NCBI GenBank assembly: GCA_002727315.1
Contig: PBWR01000011.1
Coordinates: 766 to 64,765 of the forward strand
Direction: 5' to 3'
DNA length: 64,000 nucleotides
DNA from: Alphaproteobacteria bacterium
Lineage (GTDB): Bacteria > Pseudomonadota > Alphaproteobacteria > UBA6615
A model generated the notes under the pieces. The model was not told where the DNA came from, did not search any database, and was given only the letters and a program-made list of their open reading frames with translations. The position numbers and the translations under genes were made by a program. Within the stretch, counting starts at the first letter, position 1, and each line of letters starts with the position of its first letter. Positions 1 through 53,886 of the stretch are shown one piece after another.

Positions 1-1037
1 GCGACGAAACGGTAACAGAAGACGTCATTCACGATGCGTTGGCCGGAAACCTCTGTCGGTGCACGGGGTATCGCTCGATCGTTGCGGCGGCGCGCGCCGC
101 TTGCGCCCAACCGGTTGGCGACGATGCGTTGGATGTTTCGGACATCACGGCCAGTGAACACGTGTCGGTGGATGACCAGCTGTTCCTGGCGCCGGCAAAC
201 CTCGCAGATCTGGTTGCCAGCCGCGTGGCGCATCCCGACGCGCCGCTGCTATCGGGTGGAACCGATCTGGGGCTGCGGTTCAGCAAGGAACGCGAGAGCT
301 ACCCGGTCGTGATTTTCACCCAGAATGTGGCCGAGCTGAAACAGGTCGCGGAAGATGATGCGGCGCTCACTATCGGGGCGGCGGTGACCTACACCGAGGT
401 GCTGGCCCGGATCGAAGATCTGTACCCGTCCTTCGCCACGCTGATCCACCGGATCGGATCGCGGCAAATCAGGAATGTGGGCACCATCGGCGGCAATATC
501 GGAAATGCGTCTCCTATCGGGGACACGCCGCCGTGTCTGATTGCGCTCGATGCGACGCTCGTCCTTCACGGGTCGAAGGGTGGACGTGAAATCCCGCTCG
601 AATCCTACTTCCTGGACTACCGCAAGACGGATCTGGCCGGGTACGAAGTGATTGCGTCGGTGCGGGTCCCCAAGCTCACCGACGGTCAGGTCTTCCGCTC
701 CTACAAGATTTCCAAGCGTTACGATCAAGACATCTCGGCCGTTGTCGGCGCATTCCGCCTAACCATCGAAGACGGTGTCGTGACCGACGCGCGGATCGCG
801 TTCGGCGGGATGGCCGCCATCCCCAAACGCGCTGCGGCATGTGAAGCGGCATTGGTCGGCCAGACCTGGTCGGAGGAGGCCGCGCGCCAGGCCGGTGCGG
901 CGGTAGGCGAGGATTTTGCGCCGATCGACGATCATCGCGCGAGCGCCGACTACCGGTTGCGGGTCGCGTCCAATCTGTTCGTGCGCCTGTATCGTGATCT
1001 CGACGGCGCCAGCGATGTAGAGGTGATGGCGCTATGA
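1..1037 (+). CDS. xdhA: Xanthine dehydrogenase small (2Fe-2S/FAD) subunit, 5'-truncated by the window edge
   Basis: Frame is open from position 3 (DETVTEDVIHDALAGNLCRCTGY). Contains the GNLCRCTGY Fe-S motif, GGTDLG, QIRNVGTIGGNIGNASPIGD and YKISKRYDQDISAV; overlaps the xdhB start (ATGA). Confidence 0.95.
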   Translation, partial: DETVTEDVIHDALAGNLCRCTGYRSIVAAARAACAQPVGDDALDVSDITASEHVSVDDQLFLAPANLADLVASRVAHPDAPLLSGGTDLGLRFSKERESYPVVIFTQNVAELKQVAEDDAALTIGAAVTYTEVLARIEDLYPSFATLIHRIGSRQIRNVGTIGGNIGNASPIGDTPPCLIALDATLVLHGSKGGREIPLESYFLDYRKTDLAGYEVIASVRVPKLTDGQVFRSYKISKRYDQDISAVVGAFRLTIEDGVVTDARIAFGGMAAIPKRAAACEAALVGQTWSEEAARQAGAAVGEDFAPIDDHRASADYRLRVASNLFVRLYRDLDGASDVEVMAL

Positions 1038-3352
1038 GCACGGATACGGATATTCGCGGCGCGGTTCACACCAATGTCCGCCACGATAGCGGCCACGGCC
1101 ATGTCACCGGCAAGGCTCGCTATATCGACGATATGCCCGTGCTGCCGGGTACGGTTGAGATCGTCCTGGTCACGAGCCCCCATGCGCATGCGGCGATCAA
1201 GTCGATCGATGTGGCGGCCGCACTTGCCGCCGACGGGGTGCGCGGTGTGCTGACCGCAGACGATATTCCCGGACACAATGACATCGGGCCCATCTTCGAA
1301 GGTGAGCCGGTGCTGGCGGCGGGGGTTGCCGATTATGCCGGCGCGCCGATTGTCGCGGTGGCAGCCGACAGTTTTGATCAGGCATTCGCGGCCGCCGGGC
1401 AGGTCGAGATCGAGTACGAAGTGCTGCCGGCGGTGCTCGAGATCGAGGACGCGCTCGAGCAGGAGCTCTACACCTATCCACCCCAGATCATGACCTATGG
1501 TGACCCCGACAGCGCTCTCGACGGGGCGGCACGCCGGATCAAGGGCGAGCTGCGCTGCGGCGGTCAAGATCACTTCTATCTTGAGAGCAACATCGCCCTG
1601 GCCGTGCCGCGCGACGATGGCGATCTCGACGTCCACAGCTCCACCCAGCATCCCAGCGAGGTGCAGCACGGTGTCGCCCACGTCCTCGGCATGCCGACGA
1701 ACGCCATCACCGTCGAGGTGCGGCGCATGGGCGGCGGGTTTGGCGGCAAGGAGAGCCAGCCCACCATTATAGCCGCGATCGCCGGCCTGGTGGCCAATCA
1801 CACGGGCCTGCCGGCTAAGCTGCGCCTGCGCCGCGACGACGACATGATCGTGACGGGCAAGCGGCACGATTTCCTGTTTCGCTATGACGTCGGGTTCGAT
1901 GATGACGGCCGTATCTCCGGTGTCGATATCCTGATGGGCATGCGCTCGGGCAATGTCGCGGATCTGAGCCCCGGCGTGCTCGCCCGTGCGCTGTGCCATG
2001 CCGACAACTGCTACTACCTGCCGAATGCTCGGTTGAGCGGTTATCCGTGCAAGACGAACACCGTATCCAATACGGCGTTTCGTGGCTTCGGCGGCCCCCA
2101 GGGCATGATCGTGATCGAGGCGATCCTGGAACATATCGCCCGGGAAAACGGACAGACGTTGGACCATGTGCGGGCGGTCAACTACTACGGCACCGAGGAC
2201 CGCAACGTGACGCCGTATGAGCAGACGGTAAAAGACAACATCATCGTTCCGCTGGTCGAGCGCCTGCAGTCCGAGGTCGATTTCGATGGCATGTCCAGGG
2301 CCGCGGATGAATTCAACGCATCCCATGAGACCCTGAAGAAGGGCGTGGCGCTGATGCCGGTGAAGTTCGGCATTTCGTTCAACACGCCGAAGCTCAACCA
2401 GGCCGGGGCGCTCGTCCATGTCTATGCCGATGGCAGCGTTCATCTCAACCACGGCGGTACGGAGATGGGACAGGGGCTCTTCACCAAGGTTGCCCAGGTC
2501 GTGGCCTCGGTGTTTCAGATCGATCTCGACAACATCAAGATTTCCGCTACCCGCACCGACAAAGTTCCCAACACATCGGCGACCGCGGCTTCGTCCGGTT
2601 CCGATCTGAACGGCATGGCGGCCTTCAATGCCGCCACCGCGATCAAGGGCCGGATGGCACAGGTCGCCGCCGATCATTTCGACACGGATGTCGACGCAAT
2701 CGAATTCCGCCAGAACCGGGTCTATGCCGGCAATGAAAGTCTGTCGTTTTCCGAACTGGCCGAAGAAACCTACAACCAGCGCGTTCAGCTGTCCGAGGCC
2801 GGCTTCTATTCCACCCCGGGCCTGCACTGGAATGCCAAGAAGCTCGTTGGCAATCCGTTTTACTATTTCACCTACGGCGCCGCGATCGCGGAGGTTCTGA
2901 TCGACACGCTGACCGGCGAGAGTCGGGTGCTGCGCGCCGATATCCTGCAGGACTGCGGCAGTTCCCTGAACCCGGCGATCGACATTGGGCAGATCGAAGG
3001 CGCCTTCGTGCAGGGGCAGGGTTGGCTGACGTCGGAAGAGCTGGTCTGGAATGACCGGGGACAACTCCTGACCCACGGGCCGTCGACCTACAAGATACCC
3101 GGCAGTCGGGATGTGCCCCCGGTGTTCAATGTTCACCTGTTGGAAGATGCGCCCAACCGGGTCCCGACCGTGTTCCACTCCAAGGCCGTGGGAGAACCGC
3201 CACTGATGCTGGCGATTTCGGTCTGGCTGGCGATCCGCGATGCGGTCTCGCGTATTGGTGACAACCGGCTGGTGCCGAAATTAGATGCGCCGGCGACCCC
3301 GGAAGCAATCCTGGCCGCGGTCGAGGATATTCAGGCGCGGAGCGGGGCCTGA
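1034..3352 (+). CDS. xdhB: Xanthine dehydrogenase molybdopterin-binding subunit
   Basis: Motifs HVTGKARYIDD, QDHFYLE, RRMGGGFGGKESQ, TAFRGFGGPQG, GGTEMGQG and SKAVGEPP; the catalytic Glu/Arg/Glu of xanthine oxidoreductases are present. Confidence 0.96.
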   Translation: MSTDTDIRGAVHTNVRHDSGHGHVTGKARYIDDMPVLPGTVEIVLVTSPHAHAAIKSIDVAAALAADGVRGVLTADDIPGHNDIGPIFEGEPVLAAGVADYAGAPIVAVAADSFDQAFAAAGQVEIEYEVLPAVLEIEDALEQELYTYPPQIMTYGDPDSALDGAARRIKGELRCGGQDHFYLESNIALAVPRDDGDLDVHSSTQHPSEVQHGVAHVLGMPTNAITVEVRRMGGGFGGKESQPTIIAAIAGLVANHTGLPAKLRLRRDDDMIVTGKRHDFLFRYDVGFDDDGRISGVDILMGMRSGNVADLSPGVLARALCHADNCYYLPNARLSGYPCKTNTVSNTAFRGFGGPQGMIVIEAILEHIARENGQTLDHVRAVNYYGTEDRNVTPYEQTVKDNIIVPLVERLQSEVDFDGMSRAADEFNASHETLKKGVALMPVKFGISFNTPKLNQAGALVHVYADGSVHLNHGGTEMGQGLFTKVAQVVASVFQIDLDNIKISATRTDKVPNTSATAASSGSDLNGMAAFNAATAIKGRMAQVAADHFDTDVDAIEFRQNRVYAGNESLSFSELAEETYNQRVQLSEAGFYSTPGLHWNAKKLVGNPFYYFTYGAAIAEVLIDTLTGESRVLRADILQDCGSSLNPAIDIGQIEGAFVQGQGWLTSEELVWNDRGQLLTHGPSTYKIPGSRDVPPVFNVHLLEDAPNRVPTVFHSKAVGEPPLMLAISVWLAIRDAVSRIGDNRLVPKLDAPATPEAILAAVEDIQARSGA

Positions 3353-9482: not shown

Positions 9483-10409
9483 TTAATCCTTCGCGAAGCA
9501 GCCCCTGAGTGCATCGGCGACCTGTGCAACCGCGACATTGCCCTGATCGCAGAAGCCACCCATGTTGAAGAAGCCGTGCACGACCCCGTCATACAGGTGG
9601 TACCGGACCGGGACCCCTGCATTGCGGAGTTTCGAGGCATATGCCTTGCCTTCGTCGCGGAGCGGATCAATCTGGGCCGCGATCACGACCGCCGGGGCCA
9701 GGTCCGCGACGTCCGGCTCCAGGATGGGGGACGCCCGCGGGTCAAGCCGATTGTCGCCCACATGCATGCCGATCACCCATTGCAGGGTTCGGTCATCGAG
9801 GAACATGGTCTCCTCGATCCGGCTCGGCGGCAAGCCGCCCATATCGGTCATCGGGTAGATCAGGACTTGCAAGAGCGGTTGGGCTGCGCCGTTGCGCTTG
9901 GCTTCCTGGGCGACGGTCGCGGTTAGATATCCGCCGCCACTGTCCCCGGCGATCGCGATCCGGGCGGGGTCGCCGCCGATGTCGCCGGCATTGGCCTGCA
10001 GCCAGGTGTAGGTCGCGAAGCAATCTTCCAGCGGGGCGGGAAAGGGATTTTCGGGTGCGCGCCGATAGGCGGGAACGACGACGATACAGCCGGCATCCTC
10101 GGCCAGGGCCGTGTTGGTCCCGTCATAATCCTCCGGCGCCATCATGCAGCAGCCGCCCCCGTGAAAATATGCCAATACCGGGAAGGGGCCGTCGCCATTG
10201 GGTGTGTAGACCTTGGCGCGGATGTCGCCGGCCGGGCCAGGGATCTGAATATCCTCGATCTTCGCGAGTTCGCGCGACGGTGGGTTGACCTGCTGCCACA
10301 TCTGGCTGAAGCCATCGCGGGTCGCCTCAAGGCCGAGTTCGACCGGGTGCGGCATGTCCAGTTTGACCAAGCCGTCGATGAATGTCTTGATCTGCGGATC
10401 GATATACAT
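9483..10409 (-). CDS. HSL-family alpha/beta hydrolase (esterase/lactonase)
   Basis: HGGG oxyanion motif, YRRAPENPFPA, GDSGGG nucleophile elbow, DPLRDEG, HGF. Confidence 0.93.
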   Translation of the reverse strand: MYIDPQIKTFIDGLVKLDMPHPVELGLEATRDGFSQMWQQVNPPSRELAKIEDIQIPGPAGDIRAKVYTPNGDGPFPVLAYFHGGGCCMMAPEDYDGTNTALAEDAGCIVVVPAYRRAPENPFPAPLEDCFATYTWLQANAGDIGGDPARIAIAGDSGGGYLTATVAQEAKRNGAAQPLLQVLIYPMTDMGGLPPSRIEETMFLDDRTLQWVIGMHVGDNRLDPRASPILEPDVADLAPAVVIAAQIDPLRDEGKAYASKLRNAGVPVRYHLYDGVVHGFFNMGGFCDQGNVAVAQVADALRGCFAKD

Positions 10410-10556
10410 GGCTCTTCTACCCCTTTGTTTCCCACATTGAAGGCGAGACCGGACACACGCGTCAATGGAAACCCGGCCCGGGTCGGGTCTCTGGTCCGCA
10501 CCTTGAGGCGGTGCTACGCTTTTCGGCAGGGAGCGCGGCCTGCCGCGATAACGCTC

Positions 10557-11630
10557 ATGTCCGACAATCTCAACTTCGGTTTCGTCGTCGCAACGGTAGG
10601 TGGAGACGATCTCGACGATGCCGCCCTGTACCAGGAAGTGATTGCGGATTGCCGGCTCGGTCAGTCATTGGGCTATGACAGCGCCTGGATGCTTGAGCAT
10701 CATTTTTCGGACTATTTCCCGACGCCGAGCCCGCTGGTCTTCATGTCCCATGTCGCGGCCTACTGTCCCGGACTGAGCCTTGGCAGCTCGGTCCTGGTGG
10801 CGCCCTGGTATCAGCCGCTGCGTCTGCTCGGTGAAATCTCCATGCTCAGCAACCTGGTCGACGGCGACCTGTTCATCGGGGTCGGCCGGGGTACGGCGAA
10901 GATGGAATATGACGCCTTTGACGTGAACATGGAGGACGCGCGGGGCCGGTTGCGTGAATGCCTGGAGATTATAGATCTCGGACTGTCGGGAGAGCCGTTC
11001 ACCTATGACGGTGAGCATTTCAAGATCGGCCGTACCATCCAGATTCGGCCGGTGCCGCAACCCGACCGGGTTCACCTGTTCGGCGCCATCGGCAGCCCAG
11101 AAAGCGCGCGCCTGACCGGCGAGATGAAGGTGGCGCCGCTGAATATCTGCCAGTTCCCGTTCCACATTCTCGAGAAGATGTATGCGAGCTGGAACGAAGG
11201 GGCCGCGAATGTCGGTTTTGCCGATGGGGGTCGCCGGCCCGTCGTCGCGCACTGTCTGATGGCCGATACCGACGAGGAAGCCCTTGCCATGGCGCGGACG
11301 CACCTGTCCCGGTTCTTCCGGTTGCAGAGCGTTCACTACGAGGCGGACAGCGAACCGTGGACCGACATCAAGGGCTACGAGCAGTTCAACCGGTATTTCG
11401 GGAATCTGCTCGCCCTGTCGCAGCCGGAGAATATCGACAAGTTTTCGGCCCACAATTTCGTGGGCAGTGCGAAGACCGTTGCAGGCCAGGTCGAGCGCCT
11501 GCACGACATCGGCTTCAACCACATCATAGTGCACCCGGCGACGGTGGGCGTGCCGCGCGAGATCCGGCACGACACGCTGCGCCGTTTCGCTACAAGCGTC
11601 GCACCGGGCTTCTCAGGCGCCTTCGCTTGA
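10557..11630 (+). CDS. Luciferase-like (LLM class) flavin-dependent monooxygenase
   Basis: GYDSAWMLEHHFS, PSP, PLRLLGEISML, GVGRG...EY, RLRE, PFTYDGEHF, FVGS. Confidence 0.9.
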   Translation: MSDNLNFGFVVATVGGDDLDDAALYQEVIADCRLGQSLGYDSAWMLEHHFSDYFPTPSPLVFMSHVAAYCPGLSLGSSVLVAPWYQPLRLLGEISMLSNLVDGDLFIGVGRGTAKMEYDAFDVNMEDARGRLRECLEIIDLGLSGEPFTYDGEHFKIGRTIQIRPVPQPDRVHLFGAIGSPESARLTGEMKVAPLNICQFPFHILEKMYASWNEGAANVGFADGGRRPVVAHCLMADTDEEALAMARTHLSRFFRLQSVHYEADSEPWTDIKGYEQFNRYFGNLLALSQPENIDKFSAHNFVGSAKTVAGQVERLHDIGFNHIIVHPATVGVPREIRHDTLRRFATSVAPGFSGAFA

Positions 11631-11642
11631 TCCGGGCCGATA

Positions 11643-12881
11643 TCAGTAGGGCGTGGCCTCGACCTGGCCCAGGGAATTGATCAGCACGGATTCGCTCGGT
11701 GCGGGCTTGTCGTTGACCCGGTCCAGGCACCAGTCGGCCAGCATCGTGTACCAGTTTTCCCCCAGATAGGCTGCCGATCCGCCGCCGATCGCGTGGCGCT
11801 CGCCTTCGTACATGACGAGCTTCTTCGGCACCGAAAGCTTGTTCACGAAGTCCTCGGAACATTCAATCGGACTGAGCTCCTCGTCCTGTCCGGCCTGGAC
11901 GAGGATGGGACATTTAATCTGGTCGACGATCGGGTCGAGTGAGAACTCGCTGATGAAGTTGTCGAACTCGGCCTCGTCGTCATAGTCGGCCATGAACATG
12001 AACCGGAGCTTGAAGGTCGGCGCAGCCATGTTGAAGATCGTGTAGCAGCCCGGTTCGTGACACACGAAGGACAGGGCTGCCCCTTTCACCTTGTCTCCCA
12101 GCTGGGCGGCGGCCTGTGCACCGAAGAACGATCCGAAGCTGATCCCGAAGATGACCAGGCGGTCTTTGTCGATATTCGGGTGCTGGATCAGCCAGTCGTA
12201 GACGGCCTGGGCCGCCTCCATATGATTGTCCTTGGTGACATAAACGCCGTTGACCGGGCATTCACCCTGGCCGGGCCCGTCATAGACGAAACTCGCCATG
12301 CCGCGTTCGAGCATCTTGTCGCCGTACATGGAGCACATGATCTCCTTCGATCCGTCCATGCCGTCGATCCCGATGGCGCAGGGGAACTTCTCGCCATCCT
12401 TCGGTTCGTGGGGCAGTGCCAGGAAACCCGGCAGGACACCATCGCCAAAGGGGATTTCGACGCGTTCGATCGGGCGCGGCGCAAACTCGATATACTTGTC
12501 GTAGCAATCGACCATGCGCTGGTTGTAGTCCTTGTGCAGATCGTTGGCCTCGAAGATCGGCCAGCGAGCGGCCGAATAGAGCAGTGACGCGATGAAGTAG
12601 CTCTCGCGGGCGGACACCAGACGATCCTCGGCCTCGAAGGCCTTTGCCTTGATTTCGCGCCGCCGGGCCGCGCCGGCAAACTCGCGGTGCATGTCTGCGA
12701 ACTTCTTGGTGCGCATGCCCACCGTGCGGAAATCACCAACGGCGTCGGGCCCACACGGAAACATGGTGTAGCCAAGCCGCGGCTGATCCCACTCCATCCC
12801 GACAGACGAGATGATTGCATCTAGGATCCAGCGCTGTTCGGCAAAGCGCTTCATTTTCTGTTCGGTGAAAGCCCGCATCAT
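11643..12881 (-). CDS. Alpha/beta hydrolase of the 2,6-dihydroxypseudooxynicotine hydrolase (C-C hydrolase)/FrsA-like family
   Basis: ERVEIPF, GMDGSKE, DGPGQGE, GISFG nucleophile, terminal His (ERHAI); RBS GGGGAG before ATG 12881. Confidence 0.85.
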   Translation of the reverse strand: MMRAFTEQKMKRFAEQRWILDAIISSVGMEWDQPRLGYTMFPCGPDAVGDFRTVGMRTKKFADMHREFAGAARRREIKAKAFEAEDRLVSARESYFIASLLYSAARWPIFEANDLHKDYNQRMVDCYDKYIEFAPRPIERVEIPFGDGVLPGFLALPHEPKDGEKFPCAIGIDGMDGSKEIMCSMYGDKMLERGMASFVYDGPGQGECPVNGVYVTKDNHMEAAQAVYDWLIQHPNIDKDRLVIFGISFGSFFGAQAAAQLGDKVKGAALSFVCHEPGCYTIFNMAAPTFKLRFMFMADYDDEAEFDNFISEFSLDPIVDQIKCPILVQAGQDEELSPIECSEDFVNKLSVPKKLVMYEGERHAIGGGSAAYLGENWYTMLADWCLDRVNDKPAPSESVLINSLGQVEATPY

Positions 12882-12972
12882 GGTTCGTCTCCCCAAGAAT
12901 CCATTTTTTGATTATCAGAGAATTATCTCACCACACTGGGCGCGCATTGTCTCGGCGAATTGCGCCGATTGA

Positions 12973-13557
12973 TTATTGGCGAAAGCGTTGCATCAATAAT
13001 CCGGACATGGCGTCGGCTGACGGCCTGCAAGCATTGTTGGGCACCCCGAGATTCTGTCCGACAGCGAAACCATCGAACGCCATGAAGGCGATATGCGCGA
13101 GGCTGCGGATATCGCCTTGTTCGTGCTCGGGTATCTCGAGTGCTTCACCGAGAATCTCCGCAAGCCGCTCTTCACACCATCCGAGCAGTTCCCGGCTGTA
13201 TCCGTCGCTTTCGGATGTGGTGGACAGTGCCTGCATCATGTTGTTCGCGAACCCGTTTCGCTCGGCAGGAAGTTCGCACCACAGGAAACGGAAGATCATC
13301 CGCACGCGCTCCTCGACTTCGGGTATCGAGTGCGCATCGGCTTCCAGGGCATCGAAACGCTGGAGGAGCCATGGGTTGGAGATGGCCCAAAGAATTTCGA
13401 GCTTGGAGGAAAAGTAGACATAGATGTTTGATTTCGAGACACCCGATGCCGCCGCGATGGCCGCCATTGTCGTGCCGACATATCCGTTGTCGGCGAAAAG
13501 ACTTTCTGCGCCCTTCAGAATGTGATCGCGGACTTCTTGTTTCTTAACCTGGGCCAT
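12973..13557 (-). CDS. TetR/AcrR family transcriptional regulator
   Basis: N-terminal HTH: ILKGAESLFADNGYVGTTMAAIAAASGVSKSNIYVYFSSK. Confidence 0.93.
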   Translation of the reverse strand: MAQVKKQEVRDHILKGAESLFADNGYVGTTMAAIAAASGVSKSNIYVYFSSKLEILWAISNPWLLQRFDALEADAHSIPEVEERVRMIFRFLWCELPAERNGFANNMMQALSTTSESDGYSRELLGWCEERLAEILGEALEIPEHEQGDIRSLAHIAFMAFDGFAVGQNLGVPNNACRPSADAMSGLLMQRFRQ

Positions 13558-13559
13558 AA

Positions 13560-13640
13560 AACCGAACTATATTCGTTATTGACTTGCCGACCATATCGAC
13601 TAGCATTACCGCCTACAAACGAAATCCGACATGATCGGGA
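13560..13640. promoter_or_regulatory. Divergent promoter region with three imperfect CCGA...TCG inverted repeats (candidate TetR operators)
   Basis: CCGAACTATATTCG, CCGACCATATCGA and CCGACATGATCGG between the tetR and nicX-like starts; TTGACT lies between the first two repeats. Confidence 0.35.
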
Positions 13641-13667
13641 GTGAAGAGCATGCGAATTCCAGGCGGG

Positions 13668-14732
13668 ATGCGATTTCAGGAGACCAATCCGGGCAAGCTG
13701 ACAGGCTTGTTCATGAAACAGTTCCTTATGTCCAGGGTGACGAAAGGGGAGACCATGGTCCTTCTGTCGGACCTGACGTCGCGTCCGGAATATGTCCAGG
13801 CTGGTTTTGCGGCCGCCGAGGAACTCGGGGCTGATGCCTACGAGATGCGGGTCAACATGGTGCCGTCGTGGACAAAGGTCGGTGTCGATACGATTGGCAA
13901 AACCAATGGCCTGATGGACGCGATGAAGGCGGCCGATATTGTCGTGGCGCTTCATATTCCGTTGTTCACGAGCTGGCTGCGCGAGGTGATGGCAACCGGC
14001 ACCCGGTTCCTGATGATCATCGATGCCCCGGACGACCTGGAGACGCTGCTCGCACCCAAGGGCCTGAAGGAGGCGGTAAAGTACGCAGAGAGCCGCTACC
14101 AACAGACCAAGGAAGTGCGCGTCCTGAGCGATGCCGGCACGGACCTGACCTATTCATGCGGCGAGTATCCGGTGATGAGCCAGTGGGGCTACGCCGACGA
14201 ACCGGGACATTTCGACCAATGGGGTGTTGGCCACATCCATACCTTCCCGAACGAAGGCTCAGCCAACGGCACGGTTGTGATGGCGCCAGGCGATATCATT
14301 ATTCTGCCCTACTGCCGGTACGTGCATGACGAGGTTCGGCTCGAGATTCGCGACGGGTTTATCCGGAAGGTCGAGGGAGGCCTCGATGCCAAGCTCATGC
14401 AGGACTGGCTCGATGACAACAAGGTCGCGGATGACGATCTCGATCCGTATGCGGTATCGCATCTGGGCTGGGGGCTGAACCCGCAGGCCCGCTGGTACAA
14501 CATCGCGCTCAACGGTGACGATCCGGAGCGTTCGCACGCGGCCGCGCGGGTCTTCCCGGGCAATTTCCTGTTCTCGACGGGCCCCAACACCCAGGGTGGT
14601 GGAAGCCGCAACACGAAGGGACACTGCGATGTGCCGATGCGCGATTGCACCGTCATCCTCGACAATGAGGTGGTGATCGAGCGGGGTAAGTTCGTCGACG
14701 AGAAGATGATCGTCGAGCGGGAGATGCGCTGA
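13668..14732 (+). CDS. NicX-like (2,5-dihydroxypyridine 5,6-dioxygenase family) non-heme Fe(II) ring-cleavage dioxygenase, divergent
   Basis: GYADEPG, PNEGSANG, SHLGWGLNPQARW, GNFLFSTGPNT, GHCDVPMRDC match the recalled NicX signature; the His/Ser/His/Asp metal ligands are present. Start may instead be 13650. Confidence 0.85.
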   Translation: MRFQETNPGKLTGLFMKQFLMSRVTKGETMVLLSDLTSRPEYVQAGFAAAEELGADAYEMRVNMVPSWTKVGVDTIGKTNGLMDAMKAADIVVALHIPLFTSWLREVMATGTRFLMIIDAPDDLETLLAPKGLKEAVKYAESRYQQTKEVRVLSDAGTDLTYSCGEYPVMSQWGYADEPGHFDQWGVGHIHTFPNEGSANGTVVMAPGDIIILPYCRYVHDEVRLEIRDGFIRKVEGGLDAKLMQDWLDDNKVADDDLDPYAVSHLGWGLNPQARWYNIALNGDDPERSHAAARVFPGNFLFSTGPNTQGGGSRNTKGHCDVPMRDCTVILDNEVVIERGKFVDEKMIVEREMR

Positions 14733-15568
14733 TGGCCCTGCGCGACCTTGCAGCATATCCGAAACAGGAGCCGTTCTCCGAGATCGGCGCAAAATATCAC
14801 GTCCGTGTGCAGGAGCTGGGCGCCGGAGTAACCGGACAGTCCTTTGCGTATGGTGACGATCCGTACCAGCAAGTTGCGGTGTTTCCGGCAGCCGAGCCAA
14901 ACGCGACCGTGGTTGCATTCATGCATGGCGGCGGCTGGACCAACGGCTACAAGGAGTGGATGGCGTTCATGGCGCCACCGCTGACCGCGGCAGGTATTAC
15001 CTTCGTCAGTATCGGCTACAGGTTGGCGCCCAGTGTCAGCTGGCCGACGGGCATTCAGGATGCGGCCCGGGCCGTGCAGTGGATACACGCCAACATTGCC
15101 GAGCATGGCGGCGACCCGGACCGGATTGTCATTGGCGGCCATTCGGCAGGTGGTCACTATGCTGCCTGGCTGGCGGTACGGTCAGATTGGCAAAGCCCGC
15201 TGGGCCTGCCGGACGATGTGATCAAGGGCGCATTGCCCGTGTCCGGGGTGTTCGACTTCACTGAGGGCAACGGAATGCCCATGCGACCCCGGTTTCTGGG
15301 CGAAGATCCCGACAACGACCGGGATGCCAGCCCGATTCACACGATTTCCCGCACCCCGCCATTCTACCTCTCCTGGGGTGATGCGGACTTTCCCCATCTC
15401 ATCACCCAGGCCGAACAGATGGCGCGAGCGTTGTATAATGCCGGTGGCGACGTCGAAACCCTGGTTTTGGCGGGCTGCGACCATCTGGGCGCGTCCTACG
15501 CCTGCGGCGAGAACGGGGGTGTGTGGATCAGTGGTTTAACCAGCTGGCTGAACAACCACTTTAGATAG
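14732..15568 (+). CDS. Alpha/beta hydrolase, arylformamidase (kynurenine formamidase)-like; candidate deformylase
   Basis: YGDDPYQ, HGGGW, YRLAP, GHSAGG, SGVFD, ASP, CDH; translationally coupled to the nicX-like gene (TGATG). Confidence 0.82.
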   Translation: MALRDLAAYPKQEPFSEIGAKYHVRVQELGAGVTGQSFAYGDDPYQQVAVFPAAEPNATVVAFMHGGGWTNGYKEWMAFMAPPLTAAGITFVSIGYRLAPSVSWPTGIQDAARAVQWIHANIAEHGGDPDRIVIGGHSAGGHYAAWLAVRSDWQSPLGLPDDVIKGALPVSGVFDFTEGNGMPMRPRFLGEDPDNDRDASPIHTISRTPPFYLSWGDADFPHLITQAEQMARALYNAGGDVETLVLAGCDHLGASYACGENGGVWISGLTSWLNNHFR

Positions 15569-15710: not shown

Positions 15711-16345
15711 GTGGCTCGTTCAATGTTGCGAGCGGTGCAGGAATGGACGGCCTCGAAGCCACGCGCCGCATTCGCAAACTTGAAGACCCCGATCAGTCGA
15801 ACATCTACATCATCGCGATGACGGCGAATGCACTGATCGGAGATCGGGAGACGTGTATTTCAGTGGGAATGAACGACTAACTTCCGAAGCCGATCGACCA
15901 GAACAAACTGCTCGCGGCGCTGGCAAAGGCGGGCGCTGTCGCGCCGACGGTCGCAGAAGACGAGGCCGATATCGTTGAAGACGGTGGGCCGGAATGTTTG
16001 GACCGCATGGTTCTCGACCAGCTCGAGGAGACGATCGGACAGGAAGCCCTCAACGGTATGCTGGCAATGACAGTCGCCGAGGCGCCGGCGACAGTGGCGC
16101 TGATTTCGGCCGTCAACGCGGACGGTGATCTGGAAATGATGCGGCGCGAAGTGCATGACATGAGAAGCAATTTCGGAAGCTACGGTGCCATGCGGCTGTG
16201 CGAACATGCGCGAGCCATCGAAAAAGCCTGCCGTAAGGACAATGCCCGCGAGGCATCCGAACTGGCCGACAGGCTGCCGTAGATCGTGGATCAGACCCTC
16301 GACCTTCTTAAACAACGCCTGCCAGAACTCAAGATCGCCAGCTAA
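15711..16345 (+). pseudogene. Decayed receiver (REC) + Hpt domain signalling gene
   Basis: From ATG 15743: [11 protein letters not shown]...[27 protein letters not shown] (TAA 15878-15880 replaces the usual Tyr). Hpt motif VHDMRSNFGSYGA follows, then a second stop TAG 16280-16282; the frame ends at TAA 16343-16345. An out-of-frame VARSMLRA remnant sits at 15711. Confidence 0.82.
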
Positions 16346-16358
16346 CCCGGGTATACGC

Positions 16359-17015
16359 TCACGTTGCCAGCAGTTCGGGCATCACGTCCTCGACGGCGTC
16401 GCGCACAATGCCTGCCGCCGTCTCTGCCAGAAATCGAATGTCGTCCCTGTCGCTTGCTAGGCTGGACAGCCAGTGCAGGTGGGCAAGGGCATATCCCTCT
16501 CCGACATTGGCCCATATGTCGTCCGGCTCCAGGTCCTCGTCGTTCAGGTCACACACGCGCATGGCGAAAGGTGGCGGGCCGAGATGGACGACCCAGGGAA
16601 CATCGTCGATCGCACCTGTTTCCGAATCATGGAGCGCGCCCACCACGAATCCGACGGGGACGTCTTCGGGCTGAAGTTCGGCCGATGACGGCGAGAAAGG
16701 CCGGTTCGTCAAGGCGAGACGCTGTTTGAGGTCGTCGTCGTGAACGCAATTGATGGCCAGCGCGACGAGCTGTGCGACTTCGCGAGGGTCGACCGGCCGT
16801 GGTTCCATGAAAATCAGATTGCCGACGGCGAAGCGCCCATCGTCTTCGAGCGGAAAGTACAGATCCGTCAATTCCCCGGTGGGGATCAGGTCCTCCGGGC
16901 GATGGATCACGCGGAGGAAAAACGTGGGCTCCTCGATGTGAACCAGCCAGACATCATCGCCATCTTCGGCGAACTCCGGCCAACCGAACAATCGTCCTGC
17001 AATAAACCGCGCCAT
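16359..17015 (-). CDS. Acidic hypothetical protein with two internal repeats
   Basis: 218-aa ORF from ATG 17015; repeated motif WLVHIEEPTFFLRV / WVVHLGPPPFAMRV. Confidence 0.75.
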   Translation of the reverse strand: MARFIAGRLFGWPEFAEDGDDVWLVHIEEPTFFLRVIHRPEDLIPTGELTDLYFPLEDDGRFAVGNLIFMEPRPVDPREVAQLVALAINCVHDDDLKQRLALTNRPFSPSSAELQPEDVPVGFVVGALHDSETGAIDDVPWVVHLGPPPFAMRVCDLNDEDLEPDDIWANVGEGYALAHLHWLSSLASDRDDIRFLAETAAGIVRDAVEDVMPELLAT

Positions 17016-17125
17016 TCTGTCTGGGTGCCAGATGGCAGGATGAGACGCAAGCGAAACAGGGCTTGCGTCATTCATGCGGATTCGATACCCGCGTAGACAA
17101 CAAGCAAAAAGGGGGAGAGACAGTC

Positions 17126-34932: not shown

Positions 34933-36111
34933 CTAATTGTATATCTCGCGCACACGCCCCATTGCGGCCTGAATGTTCTCCACAGAATTCGCATAGGAGA
35001 ACCGAACATAATTCTCTCCCAGATGTCCGAAACTGGTGCCCGCGACGGTTGCAACATGGGCCTCCGTCAGCAGTCGGTCCTGCACCTCCCGGGCGGATGC
35101 TCCGGTCCCGGATATGTTGGGAAATGCATAGAAGGCGCCGACCGGCGTGCGGCAGGAGAAGCCGCCGATGCCGTTCAACTCGTCGACGATCACCTTGCGG
35201 CGCTGGTCGAAGGCACGAACCATTTCGTGGACGGAATCCTGGGGCCCTTCGAGGGCCGCGATGCCGGCGAACTGGGTGCCGGCATTCACGCAGGAATGGC
35301 AATTGATGGCCAGGCGTGTCGCGGATTCGACGAGGCTGTCGGGCCAGAGCGCATAGCCCAGCCGCCACCCGGTCATCGCATAGGTCTTGGACCAGCCGTC
35401 GAGCAGGATCAGCCGGTCGCGCAGATGCTCGTAGGAAAGCAGGCTGACATGCTCGTGGCCGTCATAGGTCATCTGGCCATAAATCTCGTCCGACAGGATG
35501 GCGACATGGGGGTGCGCCTCGAGCCCGGCGGCCAGCTTGTCCATCTCCGCGCGCGGGACGGCGCCGCCGGTGGGATTGGCCGGCGTGTTGATGATGATCA
35601 GGCGCGTCGCGGGTGTGATCAGGGACAGGACTTCCTCGGCGTCGAACGAGAAGTCTTTTTCTTCCAGCAGCGGGATCGGCACGGCTGTCGCACCGGAATA
35701 GTTGATCGCGGATTCGTAAATCGGGAAACCTGGGTTCGGGTACATGATTTCCGCGCCGGCCTCGCCGAACATCATGATGGCGAAGAACATGGTGACCTTG
35801 CCGCCGGGCACACACACGATGTTGCCAGGATCGACCTCCACCGCGCGCAGGCGATGAATGTCCGCCGCCACGGCCTCGCGCAGCGCCACGATGCCCGGCG
35901 CCGGTGTATACCCATGATGGCCGTCGCGCAGGGCCTTCACCGCGGCTTCGACGATGTGCTCGGGTGTTTGAAAATCGGGCTGCCCGATGCCGAGATTGAT
36001 CACATCGTGTCCCTCGGCTTTGAGGGCTTCGGCGCGGGCCAGAACCTCGAATGCGGATTCGGTGCCGAGGCGCGAGAGGTTCTCGGCCATGTGCAATTGT
36101 GCGCTGGTCAT
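34933..36111 (-). CDS. PLP-dependent aminotransferase class I/II (aspartate aminotransferase-like)
   Basis: INLGIGQPDF, GGK, PANPTGG, SDEIY, DGWSKTYAMTGWRLGY, GAFY, VRFSYA. Confidence 0.94.
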   Translation of the reverse strand: MTSAQLHMAENLSRLGTESAFEVLARAEALKAEGHDVINLGIGQPDFQTPEHIVEAAVKALRDGHHGYTPAPGIVALREAVAADIHRLRAVEVDPGNIVCVPGGKVTMFFAIMMFGEAGAEIMYPNPGFPIYESAINYSGATAVPIPLLEEKDFSFDAEEVLSLITPATRLIIINTPANPTGGAVPRAEMDKLAAGLEAHPHVAILSDEIYGQMTYDGHEHVSLLSYEHLRDRLILLDGWSKTYAMTGWRLGYALWPDSLVESATRLAINCHSCVNAGTQFAGIAALEGPQDSVHEMVRAFDQRRKVIVDELNGIGGFSCRTPVGAFYAFPNISGTGASAREVQDRLLTEAHVATVAGTSFGHLGENYVRFSYANSVENIQAAMGRVREIYN

Positions 36112-36289
36112 GTGCGTCGTCTCTGATGTCCCCACGAAAGAGCGCACTATAGGCGGTCGGAGAACGGCTGAGCAAAACCTTTGGGGCGTACAGCCCGCAG
36201 GCCCGATGCTGTTTGGTCGCGGCTGTACCCCGGCCCGCGAACCGGCAACAATATGTCTGCAATGCGTAGACACACAGAAGGGTGCGGCC

Positions 36290-37360
36290 ATGTCCGATGA
36301 TCAGTCCCGTCCGCTTGATGATGAGGAAGTACTCCGATACTGGATCCCGCGGCTGGTCGCCGATGGCGGCGACCCGAACGATGCGCTCGCGGTGCGCAAT
36401 CGTGCGGCGACCTGGGATGCATGGCCGGATGCCTGGGCCGAGCTCGGTGACGGCTATATCGCGATGGGGCAGGATCGCCTGGCGCTCGGTCACCAGGCAA
36501 GCGCGGCCGCCGCCTATGTGCGGGCTGCCATTTGCTATCACTTCGCCCAGGTGGTCGCGTTTCACCTGCCGGAGTTAAAGACCGAGCTGCAAGGCCGCAA
36601 GGTTGCGGCCTTTCGGGAGGCGGCTCCATTGATGTCGCCGCCGGCAGAACGCCTCGACATTCCCTTCGGCGATGCGAACCTGCCCGGATATCTTCGCCTG
36701 CCGGCGGGAAGGGACGGACCGGTTCCCTGCATCCTTCTGGTGCCGGGGCTGGATTCCACGAAAGAGGACTTCGCCACCATTATGGAGATGGCGGTGCAGC
36801 GGGGGCTTGCGGCGTTTGCGTTCGATGGTCCGGGTCAGGGCGAGGTGCATCCGCGAATTCTGCTCGGCCAGAATTACGAGGCATGCATTGTCGCAGCTCA
36901 TGAGGCCATGGCCGCGCGGCCGGAAATCGATGCCGAACGGATCGGTACGCTCGGGCGCAGCCTTGGCGGAATCTATGTGGTCAAGGCGGCGGCGGTCGAA
37001 CCACGTATTAAGGCGACCGTCGTCTTTGGTGGCGCGTGGGACCTCGGCGACTGGCCGGCGATGCCGCCGCTGATCCGCGACGGGTTCGTCTATGCCACGG
37101 GTGCCGATGACGAAGACGATGCCCTGGCGCGCTTGTCCGATGTCACGCTCGACGGATGCATATCCGCGGTTACTTCGCCGGTGCTGGTCGTGCATGGGCG
37201 GAACGATGCCATCTTCAAGGCCCACCAGGCCGAGCGGATCGCCGCGGCCTTGCCGGGCAACGCGACTTTGTGGATGGATGAAGACGGGGTTCACTGCTGT
37301 CACAACCATGCATTCGAGTACCGGACCGGCATGGTGGACTGGCTCGACCGTACATTGTGA
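36290..37360 (+). CDS. Alpha/beta hydrolase of the 2,6-dihydroxypseudooxynicotine hydrolase family
   Basis: PRLVADG, YHFAQ, ERLDIPF, GLDSTKE, DGPGQGE, GRSLGG, HGRND, GVHCCHN. Confidence 0.88.
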   Translation: MSDDQSRPLDDEEVLRYWIPRLVADGGDPNDALAVRNRAATWDAWPDAWAELGDGYIAMGQDRLALGHQASAAAAYVRAAICYHFAQVVAFHLPELKTELQGRKVAAFREAAPLMSPPAERLDIPFGDANLPGYLRLPAGRDGPVPCILLVPGLDSTKEDFATIMEMAVQRGLAAFAFDGPGQGEVHPRILLGQNYEACIVAAHEAMAARPEIDAERIGTLGRSLGGIYVVKAAAVEPRIKATVVFGGAWDLGDWPAMPPLIRDGFVYATGADDEDDALARLSDVTLDGCISAVTSPVLVVHGRNDAIFKAHQAERIAAALPGNATLWMDEDGVHCCHNHAFEYRTGMVDWLDRTL

Positions 37361-51437: not shown

Positions 51438-52673
51438 CTACTCCGCGGCAACGGCGTAGTTCGGAACCTCGAGTTCCGGCACCACCTTCTCCATGAACAG
51501 GCGCATTTCTTCGAGCAGCTCGTCCTTGGGCTGCTGGGCCCAGTGCCAGATCAGAGTGATGTGCTCGCACGGGATGCGAGAATAGATCTCCTGCCAGTCG
51601 GCGATCGCGTCATCGACGGTGCCGCCGAGCACGAATTTGTGCTCCTTCATGGCCCGGAACGCTGCCTCGGCGTCGTGGTTCACCGGGTCCACATTATGGT
51701 TGCCGAAGACCGAGTAGAAGTTCTTGAAAATGTCGAGATCGTAGGACCGAAGCTTGCGGTCGAAATCGTCGGCTGATTTTCCGATGCGGGTATGGCGCAC
51801 GATGTTCTGCATCTGGCCGTACTGCAGCTGCCGGCCATGCTTGGCGGCTTCCTCCATATAGACCTGGGCAAGTTCCACGACCCCGTCGGTGGGATTGAAA
51901 TAGCTCGGCCGGAACCCGTGTTTGGCGGCGAACTCGATCGTCTCGCGCGACCGGGCTACGGCGCAGAAGACCGGCGGGTGGGGCTTCTGCAAAGGGCTGG
52001 GGACGACGGAAATCCGGCGTAGCACGCCGTTTTCGTCGATCTCGCCAGGCGCACCGGCCTCCCTGGCGATTTCATAGCCCGGGTAATCCTCGATGCCGGT
52101 CTCGATCGGGTAGGGAGCCTGATAGTATTTCCCGTCGAGTGCGACCGAATCCTGGGTCCAGCAGTCGAGCACCATCTCGACACGTTCCTCGAAAATCTCG
52201 CGATTGAGCTTGTCGCCCGAGCTGCCGTCCGAGACGGTTGCAACCGCCCCGGTCGACTGCCCAAGTACGTTCGTCCAGCGCGACTGGTAGCCGCGCGCGA
52301 AGCCGACGAAATACTTGCCCTTCGTCAGATGGTCGATCATCGCCGTTTCCTCGGCGACCCGGATCGGGTCCTGCGCCGACATCACGTAGCCGAAGGCGCC
52401 GACACGCAAATTCTCCACCTGGTTTGCCCAGTGGGCATTGAGGATGCCCGGGTTCGGGCCGACCTCGTAGCCTTCCGAATGGAAATGATGCTCGATGGTG
52501 GACATGCCCCAGAATCCCATCTCGTCGGCCGCCTTGAGGATGTCGGTCCACTCGTGGACGATCTCCTGGTAGAGGTCCGCATCCCGACCGATGGGGCGTT
52601 TTGCGCGGCGGTCGTGTTCGTCTTCGGCAGGGAAGACGGGATATAGCTGAACGATGACTTTCGGCGAACCCAT
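51438..52673 (-). CDS. Luciferase-like (LLM class) flavin-dependent monooxygenase
   Basis: ADEMGF...EHHFH, DPIRVAEETAMIDHLTKG, GFARGYQ, PSPLQKPHPP, TIEFAAKHG. Confidence 0.9.
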   Translation of the reverse strand: MGSPKVIVQLYPVFPAEDEHDRRAKRPIGRDADLYQEIVHEWTDILKAADEMGFWGMSTIEHHFHSEGYEVGPNPGILNAHWANQVENLRVGAFGYVMSAQDPIRVAEETAMIDHLTKGKYFVGFARGYQSRWTNVLGQSTGAVATVSDGSSGDKLNREIFEERVEMVLDCWTQDSVALDGKYYQAPYPIETGIEDYPGYEIAREAGAPGEIDENGVLRRISVVPSPLQKPHPPVFCAVARSRETIEFAAKHGFRPSYFNPTDGVVELAQVYMEEAAKHGRQLQYGQMQNIVRHTRIGKSADDFDRKLRSYDLDIFKNFYSVFGNHNVDPVNHDAEAAFRAMKEHKFVLGGTVDDAIADWQEIYSRIPCEHITLIWHWAQQPKDELLEEMRLFMEKVVPELEVPNYAVAAE

Positions 52674-52941
52674 TATGCGTTCCTCACAGATGTTGGCGGC
52701 GGTGTTTGTTGGACCCGATCATGCAAAGACTAGTCGGTCCCGCCAAATCGATTGCACAGAAATTTTTACTGAATGAAAATATCATTGGGCGTGCGCCAAG
52801 ACCAGTTCCGGTGCGTCGGCTTCGCGGTTCCATTGCTGTCTGGTCGTGTGTCAAATAGATCCATGCAGGTACGACGATTTACGATTTGCGCTATCATCCG
52901 GTTCGCTGAAATTCCGTGTAACCGTTGTTTGAGAGACAGAG

Positions 52942-53886
52942 ATGGCCCTCCATCCCCAAATCATAGAACTTATCCACCGTGCCGAGCAGGCTGGCGTCCG
53001 TCCGACGCACGAGATGACACCTCATGAGGCACGCCAGCAAATGGATGAAATGTCCCGTATACGTGACCAGGATCGAACTTCGGTTCGCATGGTCGCCGAT
53101 ACGGTGATCGACGGACCGGGCGGGAATCTGACCCTGCGTTTCTACTGGCCGGAGGTGGAGCGGACGGAACTGGCGCCGGCGATCATGTTCTTTCACGGTG
53201 GCGGGCATGTGATCGGCAGCCTGAATTCCCATGACCTGGTGGCGCGCAATCTATGCGCCGATACTGGATATCTCGTGATCTCGGTCGATTATCGCCTGGC
53301 ACCAGAGGCCAAGTTCCCGGCCGCCCCCAAGGATTGCTTTGCAGCCACTCAGTGGGTCGCGGCAAACACGCGCCAGCTGGGCGTCGATCCGGCCCGGATA
53401 GGGGTGGCTGGAGACAGTGCCGGGGCGAACCTGGCGGCGGTGGTCGCAATGATGGCGCGCGAGGCCGGCGGTCCGGACATTGCTTTCCAGCTTCTAATCT
53501 ATCCGGTGGCGGATTTCGCGATGGACACCCCGTCCTACGAAACCTATGCCGAGGGAGCAGGGATTTTGACGGCGGCCGGTATGGCGTGGTTTCGGGAGCA
53601 TTATCTGAATGGGCCGGAAGACCGCGCGGACTGGCGCGCGGCGCCTCTCCAGGCGGCGGATTTCACGAACCTGCCGCCAGCGCTGGTGATAACCGCAGAG
53701 TGCGATGTCCTCCACGATGAGGGGGTGGCGCTGGCGGCGGCGCTGGCCGATGCAGGGGGCACCGTGGAGCACCGCGAATACCCTGGCATGATGCATGGCT
53801 TCTATTCGTTCGCGCCGGTGGTCGATGACGGCCGGGCGGCACAGTTGTTCGCGGCCGAGGCATTGCGCGCGGCTCTTTCAACCTAA
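52942..53886 (+). CDS. HSL-family alpha/beta hydrolase (esterase/lactonase)
   Basis: HGGG, DYRLAPEAKFPAA, GDSAGANL, DVLHDEG, HGF. Confidence 0.93.
   Translation: MALHPQIIELIHRAEQAGVRPTHEMTPHEARQQMDEMSRIRDQDRTSVRMVADTVIDGPGGNLTLRFYWPEVERTELAPAIMFFHGGGHVIGSLNSHDLVARNLCADTGYLVISVDYRLAPEAKFPAAPKDCFAATQWVAANTRQLGVDPARIGVAGDSAGANLAAVVAMMAREAGGPDIAFQLLIYPVADFAMDTPSYETYAEGAGILTAAGMAWFREHYLNGPEDRADWRAAPLQAADFTNLPPALVITAECDVLHDEGVALAAALADAGGTVEHREYPGMMHGFYSFAPVVDDGRAAQLFAAEALRAALST

Follow-up and report, generated by a model that had tools for sequence, protein, structure and literature searches.

A NicX-family dioxygenase paired with a serine hydrolase in a marine alphaproteobacterium: a candidate ring-opening module for an N-heterocycle

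The locus and its genes

The DNA considered here, referred to as the window, is a stretch of 64,000 nucleotides (contig PBWR01000011.1, positions 766 to 64,765) from the alphaproteobacterial assembly GCA_002727315.1, a 2.24-Mb metagenome-assembled genome (MAG) that is 87% complete. Its closest named relatives are uncultured marine MAGs of Alphaproteobacteria/Rhodospirillaceae, and marine metagenome runs contain near-identical DNA, four of them holding at least half of the sampled words; one of the samples could be that from which the DNA comes. The window carries a gene for a predicted ring-cleavage dioxygenase of the NicX family, coupled to a gene for a serine hydrolase; a gene for a TetR-family regulator lies on the other side, and beyond it are genes for an FrsA-like hydrolase, a luciferase-like monooxygenase (LLM) and an esterase (Table 1). 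The residues of the dioxygenase and its gene partners in related genomes suggest that the pair is an undescribed two-step module for opening an N-heterocyclic ring, controlled by the TetR protein, with a substrate that is probably a substituted relative of 2,5-dihydroxypyridine (2,5-DHP). We give this reading a probability of roughly 0.55.

An earlier note, made from the letters of the DNA, had described the LLM, a DHPON-hydrolase-like enzyme, the regulator, the dioxygenase and its partner hydrolase. All five genes are present on the strands that it claimed, and the TetR gene does diverge from the dioxygenase-hydrolase pair. The note placed the start of the dioxygenase gene at 13668; the ATG at 13650 is the likelier start, because it is preceded by GGGAG, 8 nt upstream, and because the resulting product has the length of the database homologues.

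Table 1. Features of the locus, in window coordinates.
Feature	Position	Strand	Evidence and remarks
Abhydrolase_3 esterase, hormone-sensitive-lipase type	9483-10409	-	Abhydrolase_3 3.8e-61; divergent from LLM; membership uncertain
Luciferase-like monooxygenase (LLM), 357 aa	10557-11630	+	Bac_luciferase 2.4e-47; variable accessory, membership uncertain
FrsA-like alpha/beta hydrolase (Ayg1 / AntI / DHPON-hydrolase family)	11643-12896	-	Pfam FrsA-like 5.7e-12
TetR-family regulator, 194 aa, divergent	12973-13557	-	TetR_N 9.5e-15
Operator-like palindrome CGAACTATATTCG	13563-13575, in wider conserved stretch 13560-13579		CGAAC-N3-GTTCG, 1 mismatch
NicX-family Fe(II) ring-cleavage dioxygenase (predicted), 360 aa	13650-14732	+	PDB 7cn3 E 2.6e-66
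Abhydrolase_3 serine hydrolase, 278 aa	14732-15568	+	Pfam Abhydrolase_3 4.1e-25

A NicX-type enzyme with its iron ligands in place

The match of the dioxygenase to NicX of Pseudomonas putida (phmmer against PDB sequences) is full length, covering residues 9-343, at an identity of about 35-36%. An AlphaFold model built from a 66-row family alignment has a mean pLDDT of 94.9, and its top Foldseek matches are the NicX chains 7cup and 7cn3 (TM 0.89-0.92, E 1e-42, 35-36% identity). In precomputed database annotation the NicX family is PF26233; the copies of Pfam and NCBIfam used here hold no model for it, and the dioxygenase finds no match in either, even at E 10. In a HMMER alignment to 7cn3 the four iron ligands of NicX, His265, Ser302, His318 and Asp320, are all kept, as H271, S309, H325 and D327 in the enzyme's own numbering, which bears out the claim that the metal-ligand motifs SHLGWG, FSTG and HCD are intact. 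The same four ligands are found in the 77 loci that gave a near-full-length match, out of 80 related loci that were fetched.

It may be asked whether the protein is an oxygenase at all, rather than an M29-type metallopeptidase or some other hydrolase. M29 aminopeptidases are the next structural neighbours of the model (TM 0.56-0.64 by model length), and PGAP labels distant members of the family 'leucyl aminopeptidase'. Identity to the M29 chains is 12%, against 35-36% and a TM of 0.9 for NicX; the His/Ser/His/Asp ligand set specific to NicX is kept; and there is no Peptidase_M29 Pfam match even at E 10, so that a peptidase is hardly credible. We infer NicX-type dioxygenase chemistry for the window enzyme, and sequence comparison supports its assignment to a subfamily distinct from the genuine 2,5-DHP dioxygenases. 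Homologues in a plasmid collection are all below 40% identity.

The substrate pocket

Four changes at substrate-contacting positions had been claimed for the window enzyme, and the alignment to 7cn3 confirms them: LLH to PLF (H105F), TEYG to SQWG (E177Q), WDHW to FDQW (H189Q) and NTE to NTQ (E308Q). Glutamine is found at positions 177, 189 and 308 (177 and 308 being Q178 and Q315 in the enzyme's own numbering), where NicX-type enzymes have Glu177, His189 and Glu308, and the signature of the subfamily reads, in NicX numbering, L104 / F105 / Q177 / Q189 / Q308. In a study of NicX (PMC7910607), E177 hydrogen-bonds N1 and O1 of 2,5-DHP and H189 bonds O1; residual activity is 2.7% in E177A and 6.9% in H189A, and the double mutant is dead. 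The same study reports that E308A loses about half of the activity, that H105A is dead and that H105M and H105F stay active.

Eleven positions were compared across four sets of sequences. The first consists of the related loci from named genome records, where F105 with Q177 is found in 73/77 near-full-length matches and Q308 in 71 (70 of them within the clade); H189 is found in 56, and Q189 in 17, all of the window's marine lineage. The second comprises the best 120 database matches clustered at 90%, all at least 70% identical: F105 and Q177 occur in 120/120 each, Q308 in 118, H189 in 114 and Q189 in 6. The third represents the whole family, which amounts to 1284 clusters at 50% identity with E<=1e-3, or 147 with E<=1e-30, and from which 67 full-length sequences with intact ligands were examined (66 representatives and one clade member). 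Q177 is found in 41 of these and E177 in 9. At position 105, 27 sequences have H, 21 have Y and 12 have F; at position 189, 35 have H, 12 have N and 4 have Q.

The fourth set is an even sample of 400 Pseudomonadota genomes, each at least 90% complete, with 20 kb fetched around each match. A family match at E<=1e-30 occurs in 31 genomes, at 33 places. Homologues of NicC, NicD, NicE or NicF lie near 17 of these places; together with the annotated nic cluster of Azospirillum oryzae, a syntenic cluster used throughout as the canonical example, they form a nic-context set of 18. E177, H189 and E308 are present in 18/18 of this set, F105 in 15 and H105 in three. One more place has the E177/H189/E308 signature and no nic genes within reach, 14 others without nic genes lack E177, and at the last one tblastn found no match. 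Cultured-type Pseudomonadota genomes (L112-L125) contain other subgroups of the NicX family, which are likewise without E177 and without neighbouring nic genes.

The four changes differ in what they can tell. F105 is not diagnostic, since it is the majority state in nic clusters. In a quick tree the window enzyme and that of locus L014, both with Q189, group with those of L013, L015 and L016, which have H189, at up to 88% identity; H and Q at 189 thus replace each other between close orthologues that share a gene context, and the change H189Q looks near-neutral. Only E177Q and E308Q separate the clade cleanly from the nic-context enzymes. The 'rewired substrate pocket' of the earlier note is overstated: F105 is common and NicX H105F stays active, H189 is kept in most of the first set, and Q177 is the commonest state family-wide.

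Replacement of both glutamates by glutamine removes negative charge, from which it would follow that the natural substrate is probably not free 2,5-DHP but a related compound with a substituent, perhaps a carboxyl group or a group on the nitrogen. A 5-hydroxy-2-pyridone that is more anionic, or substituted in some other way, would fit. Alternatively, the enzyme might be an ordinary, isofunctional 2,5-DHP 5,6-dioxygenase, with the hydrolase as a non-orthologous N-formylmaleamate deformylase and the maleamate processed elsewhere or excreted. The kept iron ligands and L104 are in line with this, as are the normality of F105 in nic clusters, the activity of NicX H105F (PMC7910607), the retention of H189 in most of the clade and the naming of many members as 2,5-DHP dioxygenase in JGI annotation. 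Against it stands the replacement throughout the clade of E177 and E308, invariant in the nic-context loci, at least the first of which matters greatly in NicX, where E177A cripples the enzyme (PMC7910607). We consider the ordinary reading unlikely, though by no means negligible, and return to it below where the gene context bears on it.

The coupled hydrolase and the maleamate pathway

The stop codon of the dioxygenase gene overlaps the start codon of the hydrolase gene as TGATG (14730-14734), and the two are translationally coupled, as the pair had been claimed to be. The translated hydrolase contains the motifs HGGGW and GHSAGG. Arylformamidase-type enzymes are defined by an HGG[G/Y]W oxyanion motif and a GHSAG nucleophile motif, and it was from motifs of this kind that an 'arylformamidase-type' deformylase had been proposed. 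This label could not be substantiated: no formamidase is found among the NCBIfam matches, the top 60 PDB matches or the Atlas names, and the protein is a generic Abhydrolase_3 member in every library. The partner is, as proposed, not NicD, the comparison with the Azospirillum NicD orthologue giving a BLASTP E of 0.08 and a match at the nucleophile elbow only. We propose that the hydrolase may hydrolyse the N-acyl (formyl) product of ring cleavage.

Gene context was counted by tblastn with the window proteins as queries, in the 78 loci whose dioxygenase is complete. An orthologue of the hydrolase (at least 47% identity) is linked to the dioxygenase in 46 of them. In 23 of these it is the next gene, in 21 it follows some 5.2 kb downstream, and in two the distance is 2.3-3.0 kb. 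The conserved core is therefore dioxygenase plus hydrolase, often accompanied by the TetR gene and the CGAAC-N3-GTTCG site described in the next section.

The surroundings of this core differ from the maleamate pathway, as the earlier note had held. With the proteins of the canonical Azospirillum nic cluster as tblastn queries, the 80 fetched loci contain no NicD, two NicE-like genes (26-29% identity) and one NicF-like gene; eight NicC-like genes (27-28% identity) all belong to a gammaproteobacterial arrangement considered below. The window itself has no nicC-, nicD-, nicE- or nicF-like gene. At E<=1e-5 neither the window nor the rest of the MAG has a NicC or NicE homologue, and one NicF-like gene of the isochorismatase family lies on another contig of the MAG, C24, at 39% identity. 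This last gene would suit an ordinary 2,5-DHP dioxygenase; the near absence of maleamate genes within 10 kb across the 78 loci, and of NicE from the MAG, would not.

The TetR regulator and a putative operator

An orthologue of the TetR protein (40-59% identity) adjoins the dioxygenase in 24/78 loci, in two gene arrangements. In the window the palindrome CGAACTATATTCG is close to the tetR start, on its upstream side, and some 87 nt ahead of the dioxygenase ATG. A search for inverted repeats with a 6-nt seed found none in 13540-13670, and the imperfect palindrome emerged only when loci were compared. With at most one mismatch, CGAAC-N3-GTTCG occurs upstream of the dioxygenase in 14 of 25 loci that have the TetR gene, mostly 83-103 nt before the start, and in 0 of 29 that do not; 500 shuffles gave a mean of 0.14 per 25 regions and a maximum of two, and the 64-kb window contains three sites. 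TetR probably represses the pair through this site, but the palindrome is a lead rather than proof, because the sequences that yielded the motif also served for the counts, and the loci are kin.

Molybdenum hydroxylases in related genomes

Molybdenum hydroxylases are the classic enzymes for the hydroxylation of N-heterocycles. In 38/78 loci genes for such an enzyme directly follow the dioxygenase gene, in two independent arrangements. One of these, here called operon B, is found outside the window's lineage and runs dioxygenase, CoxG-CoxM-CoxS-CoxL, hydrolase and a LIV-type ATP-binding cassette (ABC) transporter; the insert between dioxygenase and hydrolase, encoding CoxG, CoxM (FAD), CoxS (2Fe-2S) and CoxL (Mo), measures 4 kb in 21 loci. 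A four-component hydroxylase with a separate SRPBCC subunit lies beside the dioxygenase in 21-25 related loci altogether and is absent from the window. In the other, third arrangement overall, found in 13 gammaproteobacterial MAGs, CoxM-CoxS-CoxL follow the dioxygenase and there is no hydrolase; the genes upstream encode an aminotransferase, an FAD monooxygenase, TauD and an aldo-keto reductase. The recurrence of these operons supports an N-heterocyclic substrate that would be hydroxylated next to the nitrogen before cleavage. No ligand was suggested by the PDB relatives of the operon-B binding protein. Hwanghaeella sp. 1Z406 (L057) is a cultured bacterium that has the full operon.

Operon B also bears on the ordinary 2,5-DHP reading. 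In the soil MAG of locus L036 its flanks are unrelated (SIR2-like, HNH, methyltransferase), and it looks self-contained for that reason, which counts against that reading. This operon, at 3591-9064 of L036, lies beside SIR2-like, HNH, HARE-HTH and methyltransferase genes, a defence-island-like setting.

A further possibility is that the Mo enzyme prepares a ring other than a pyridone, such as a hydroxylated pyrimidine, a pyrazine, a pyrone or a carbocyclic, hydroquinone-like compound, and that this is what the dioxygenase cleaves. The diversity of the family, with its 147 clusters at E<=1e-30 and highly variable pocket positions, would allow it; the nearest solved structure to the large subunit of operon B is 4-hydroxybenzoyl-CoA reductase alpha (1.5e-121); and the gene contexts vary, with cupin, TauD, FAD monooxygenase and cyclase genes among them. 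To our knowledge, all characterised NicX-family enzymes act on one compound, 2,5-DHP; a cis-lactam would suit L104 together with the Gln/His pair at 177 and 189; and nothing points directly to any alternative ring. We regard a non-pyridone ring as improbable.

The window's lineage lacks these operons. In the quick tree, the root of which is not established, the marine lineage is one well-supported clade of 24 rows and the hydroxylase-bearing arrangement appears on several branches, a pattern to be expected if the window's lineage lost the hydroxylase secondarily. Two candidates for a hydroxylase within the MAG were considered and rejected. An orthologue of the operon-B enzyme elsewhere in the MAG can be set aside, the best match having 34% identity. 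The other candidate lies at 1-3352 of the window, which encodes a partial XdhA and a complete XdhB (TIGR02965, 1142 bits; cut-off 849.5); it is a bona fide xanthine dehydrogenase, and bipA lies between it and the cluster. A similar Mo enzyme is found 7.5-10 kb upstream of the dioxygenase in eight related marine loci, and the XdhAB genes probably represent purine catabolism kept by synteny, outside the module.

Some further observations concern individual relatives. Two MAGs have two clade dioxygenase copies each, on the same or different contigs (L058/L059 and L040/L041); one copy has the hydroxylase operon and the other does not, and in L058/L059 the proteins are identical. L043 and L044 carry nearly identical dioxygenase operons in records labelled Alphaproteobacteria and Verrucomicrobiales, which points to a binning error or a recent transfer. 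In a Centralia MAG (L084, 13085-13861) the dioxygenase-hydrolase pair is followed by a gene for a PF04199 'cyclase' and one for another alpha/beta hydrolase.

Neighbours confined to the marine lineage

The FrsA-like protein scores 45.6 bits against PF06500 (cut-off 22) and has a GISFG nucleophile elbow. Its similarity to three solved structures, 8qd1 (Ayg1/Yg1; 6.3e-13), 2jbw (DHPON hydrolase; 1.8e-11) and 6hxa (AntI; 6.1e-11), is weak and about equal (46.8-51.5 bits). The listed start is a TTG; because the homologues have 411-415 residues, the true start is probably a Met a few codons further in. None of its 1760 database relatives is functionally named. The gene is adjacent in 21/78 loci, all of the marine lineage. 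The LLM has orthologues (77-86% identity) in 8/78 loci; its best PDB match is luciferase alpha, and it matches generic LLM models only, all NCBIfam matches being below their cut-offs and no RutA model being among them, so that these searches place it with none of the ring-opening LLM enzymes RutA, PyrA and TpdA. By the counts of loci, neither the LLM nor the DHPON-hydrolase-like gene belongs to the conserved system; both are accessories of particular lineages.

The esterase scores 292.9 bits against LipP1, below the cut-off of 350, and an orthologue is found in 20/78 loci, all of the marine lineage, with two weak matches (30-31%) elsewhere. At 35987-37360 and 51438-53886 the window contains another FrsA-like hydrolase, which shares 28% identity with the one described above, and another divergent LLM / Abhydrolase_3 pair, which shares 30-33% with that at 9483-11630. 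The repeated pairing hints at a separate oxygenase-esterase unit. Downstream of the partner hydrolase, the open reading frames at 15860-16315 (-) and 16359-17075 (-) have no Pfam, NCBIfam or Atlas match; the latter, of 238 residues, is conserved in 16 related loci, where it lies downstream of the hydrolase and precedes genes for a zinc alcohol dehydrogenase, a FAH-family protein and an acyl-CoA dehydrogenase.

The proposed mechanism

The scheme that we favour is as follows. The dioxygenase, by means of the NicX His/Ser/His/Asp iron centre, would cleave an N-heterocycle of the 5-hydroxy-2-pyridone type next to the ring nitrogen, and the coupled serine hydrolase would then remove the resulting N-acyl (formyl) group; the divergent TetR protein would repress the pair through the CGAAC-N3-GTTCG site. 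In most of the other lineages a dedicated four-subunit Mo hydroxylase would make the substrate from an imported heterocycle, and in the marine lineage, where the hydroxylase is missing, the neighbour of the FrsA/Ayg1/DHPON-hydrolase family may release it by C-C hydrolysis. What the analysis shows is the family membership, the fold, the ligands, the residue pattern, the linkage of the genes and the lack of maleamate genes nearby; the dioxygenase chemistry, the role of the hydrolase, the control by TetR and the nature of the substrate are conjectural. More tentatively, at slightly less than an even chance, the pair may lie at the heart of a catabolic route, so far undescribed and spread over marine, sponge-associated and soil bacteria, by which some N-heterocycle that is not 2,5-DHP is broken down without the maleamate pathway, with the Mo hydroxylase exchanged for a C-C hydrolase in the marine lineage. 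The substrate of such a route could, with the same reserve, be a carboxylated or N-substituted hydroxypyridine, for example a vitamin- or alkaloid-derived 3-hydroxypyridine. Homarine catabolism was also considered and rejected; homABCDER is a flavin TgnAB-like system unrelated to the module.

Several points weigh against this scheme. The clade is known here from sequences alone. The charge argument is one that we infer only, and the enzyme may yet act on plain 2,5-DHP, because Gln can hydrogen-bond the lactam as Glu does, H189 is mostly kept and NicX H105F is active. The residue calls of the fourth set, at 30-35% identity, are those of pairwise tblastn alignments. Definition and counting of the operator motif used one set of sequences, from loci that are kin, and the link to the FrsA-like gene comes from one lineage of related genomes. 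The window does not have this Mo hydroxylase, nor was an operon-type CoxL orthologue found in the 87%-complete MAG. Finally, the CoxG-bearing Mo hydroxylase of the relatives resembles HpdA, a 3-hydroxypyridine dehydrogenase that yields 2,5-DHP according to a preprint (10.1101/2020.01.08.898148), and this parallel in layout with the 3hpd cluster also counts in favour of an ordinary 2,5-DHP dioxygenase. The literature searches made brought up no work on this clade, nor any on NicX homologues that act on another substrate.

Comparison with known systems

With NicX and NicD of P. putida KT2440, the 2,5-DHP 5,6-dioxygenase and N-formylmaleamate deformylase of the nic pathway, the system shares the fold, the iron site and L104 of the dioxygenase, the pairing of its gene with that of an alpha/beta hydrolase and, in relatives, the link to a Mo hydroxylase. 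It differs in the modest identity of the dioxygenase (35-36%), in E177Q, E308Q and, here, H189Q, in an Abhydrolase_3 hydrolase without significant similarity to NicD, in the lack of NicC, NicE and NicF nearby, and in its regulator, which is of the TetR family where nic has the MarR-type NicR. The 3hpd cluster of Ensifer adhaerens HP1 (HpdA1A2A3A4 and hpdBCDE), as described in the preprint cited above, resembles the relatives in gene layout, where a four-part Mo hydroxylase with a separate SRPBCC/CoxG subunit and an ABC transporter lie beside the dioxygenase. It encodes all of the maleamate set, along with PEP-utilising helper proteins and a regulator of the GntR type, whereas operon B is without maleamate genes and the window itself, unlike 3hpd, is without this hydroxylase. 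The neighbour at 11643-12896 shares the FrsA-like family and the Ser nucleophile elbow with the DHPON hydrolase of Paenarthrobacter nicotinovorans and with the retro-Claisen C-C hydrolases Ayg1/Yg1 and AntI; the similarity is weak and at the level of the family, and the neighbour, restricted to the marine lineage, may have a related role.

What this means for the NicX family

The iron centre and fold of NicX are known; what appears to be new, from the comparisons made here, is a large and widespread NicX-type subfamily outside the maleamate pathway. The pockets differ greatly among the sequence clusters of the family, of which there are well over 100, and members of the clade are still named 2,5-DHP dioxygenase by automatic annotation. 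Positions 177 and 308 offer a simple rule to tell true maleamate-pathway enzymes from the rest. The clade is abundant in uncultured marine and soil Proteobacteria, and its dioxygenase comes with a constant partner hydrolase and a regulator, often also with a hydroxylase and a transporter of its own. The compound on which it acts is, for these reasons, probably a common form of dissolved organic nitrogen.

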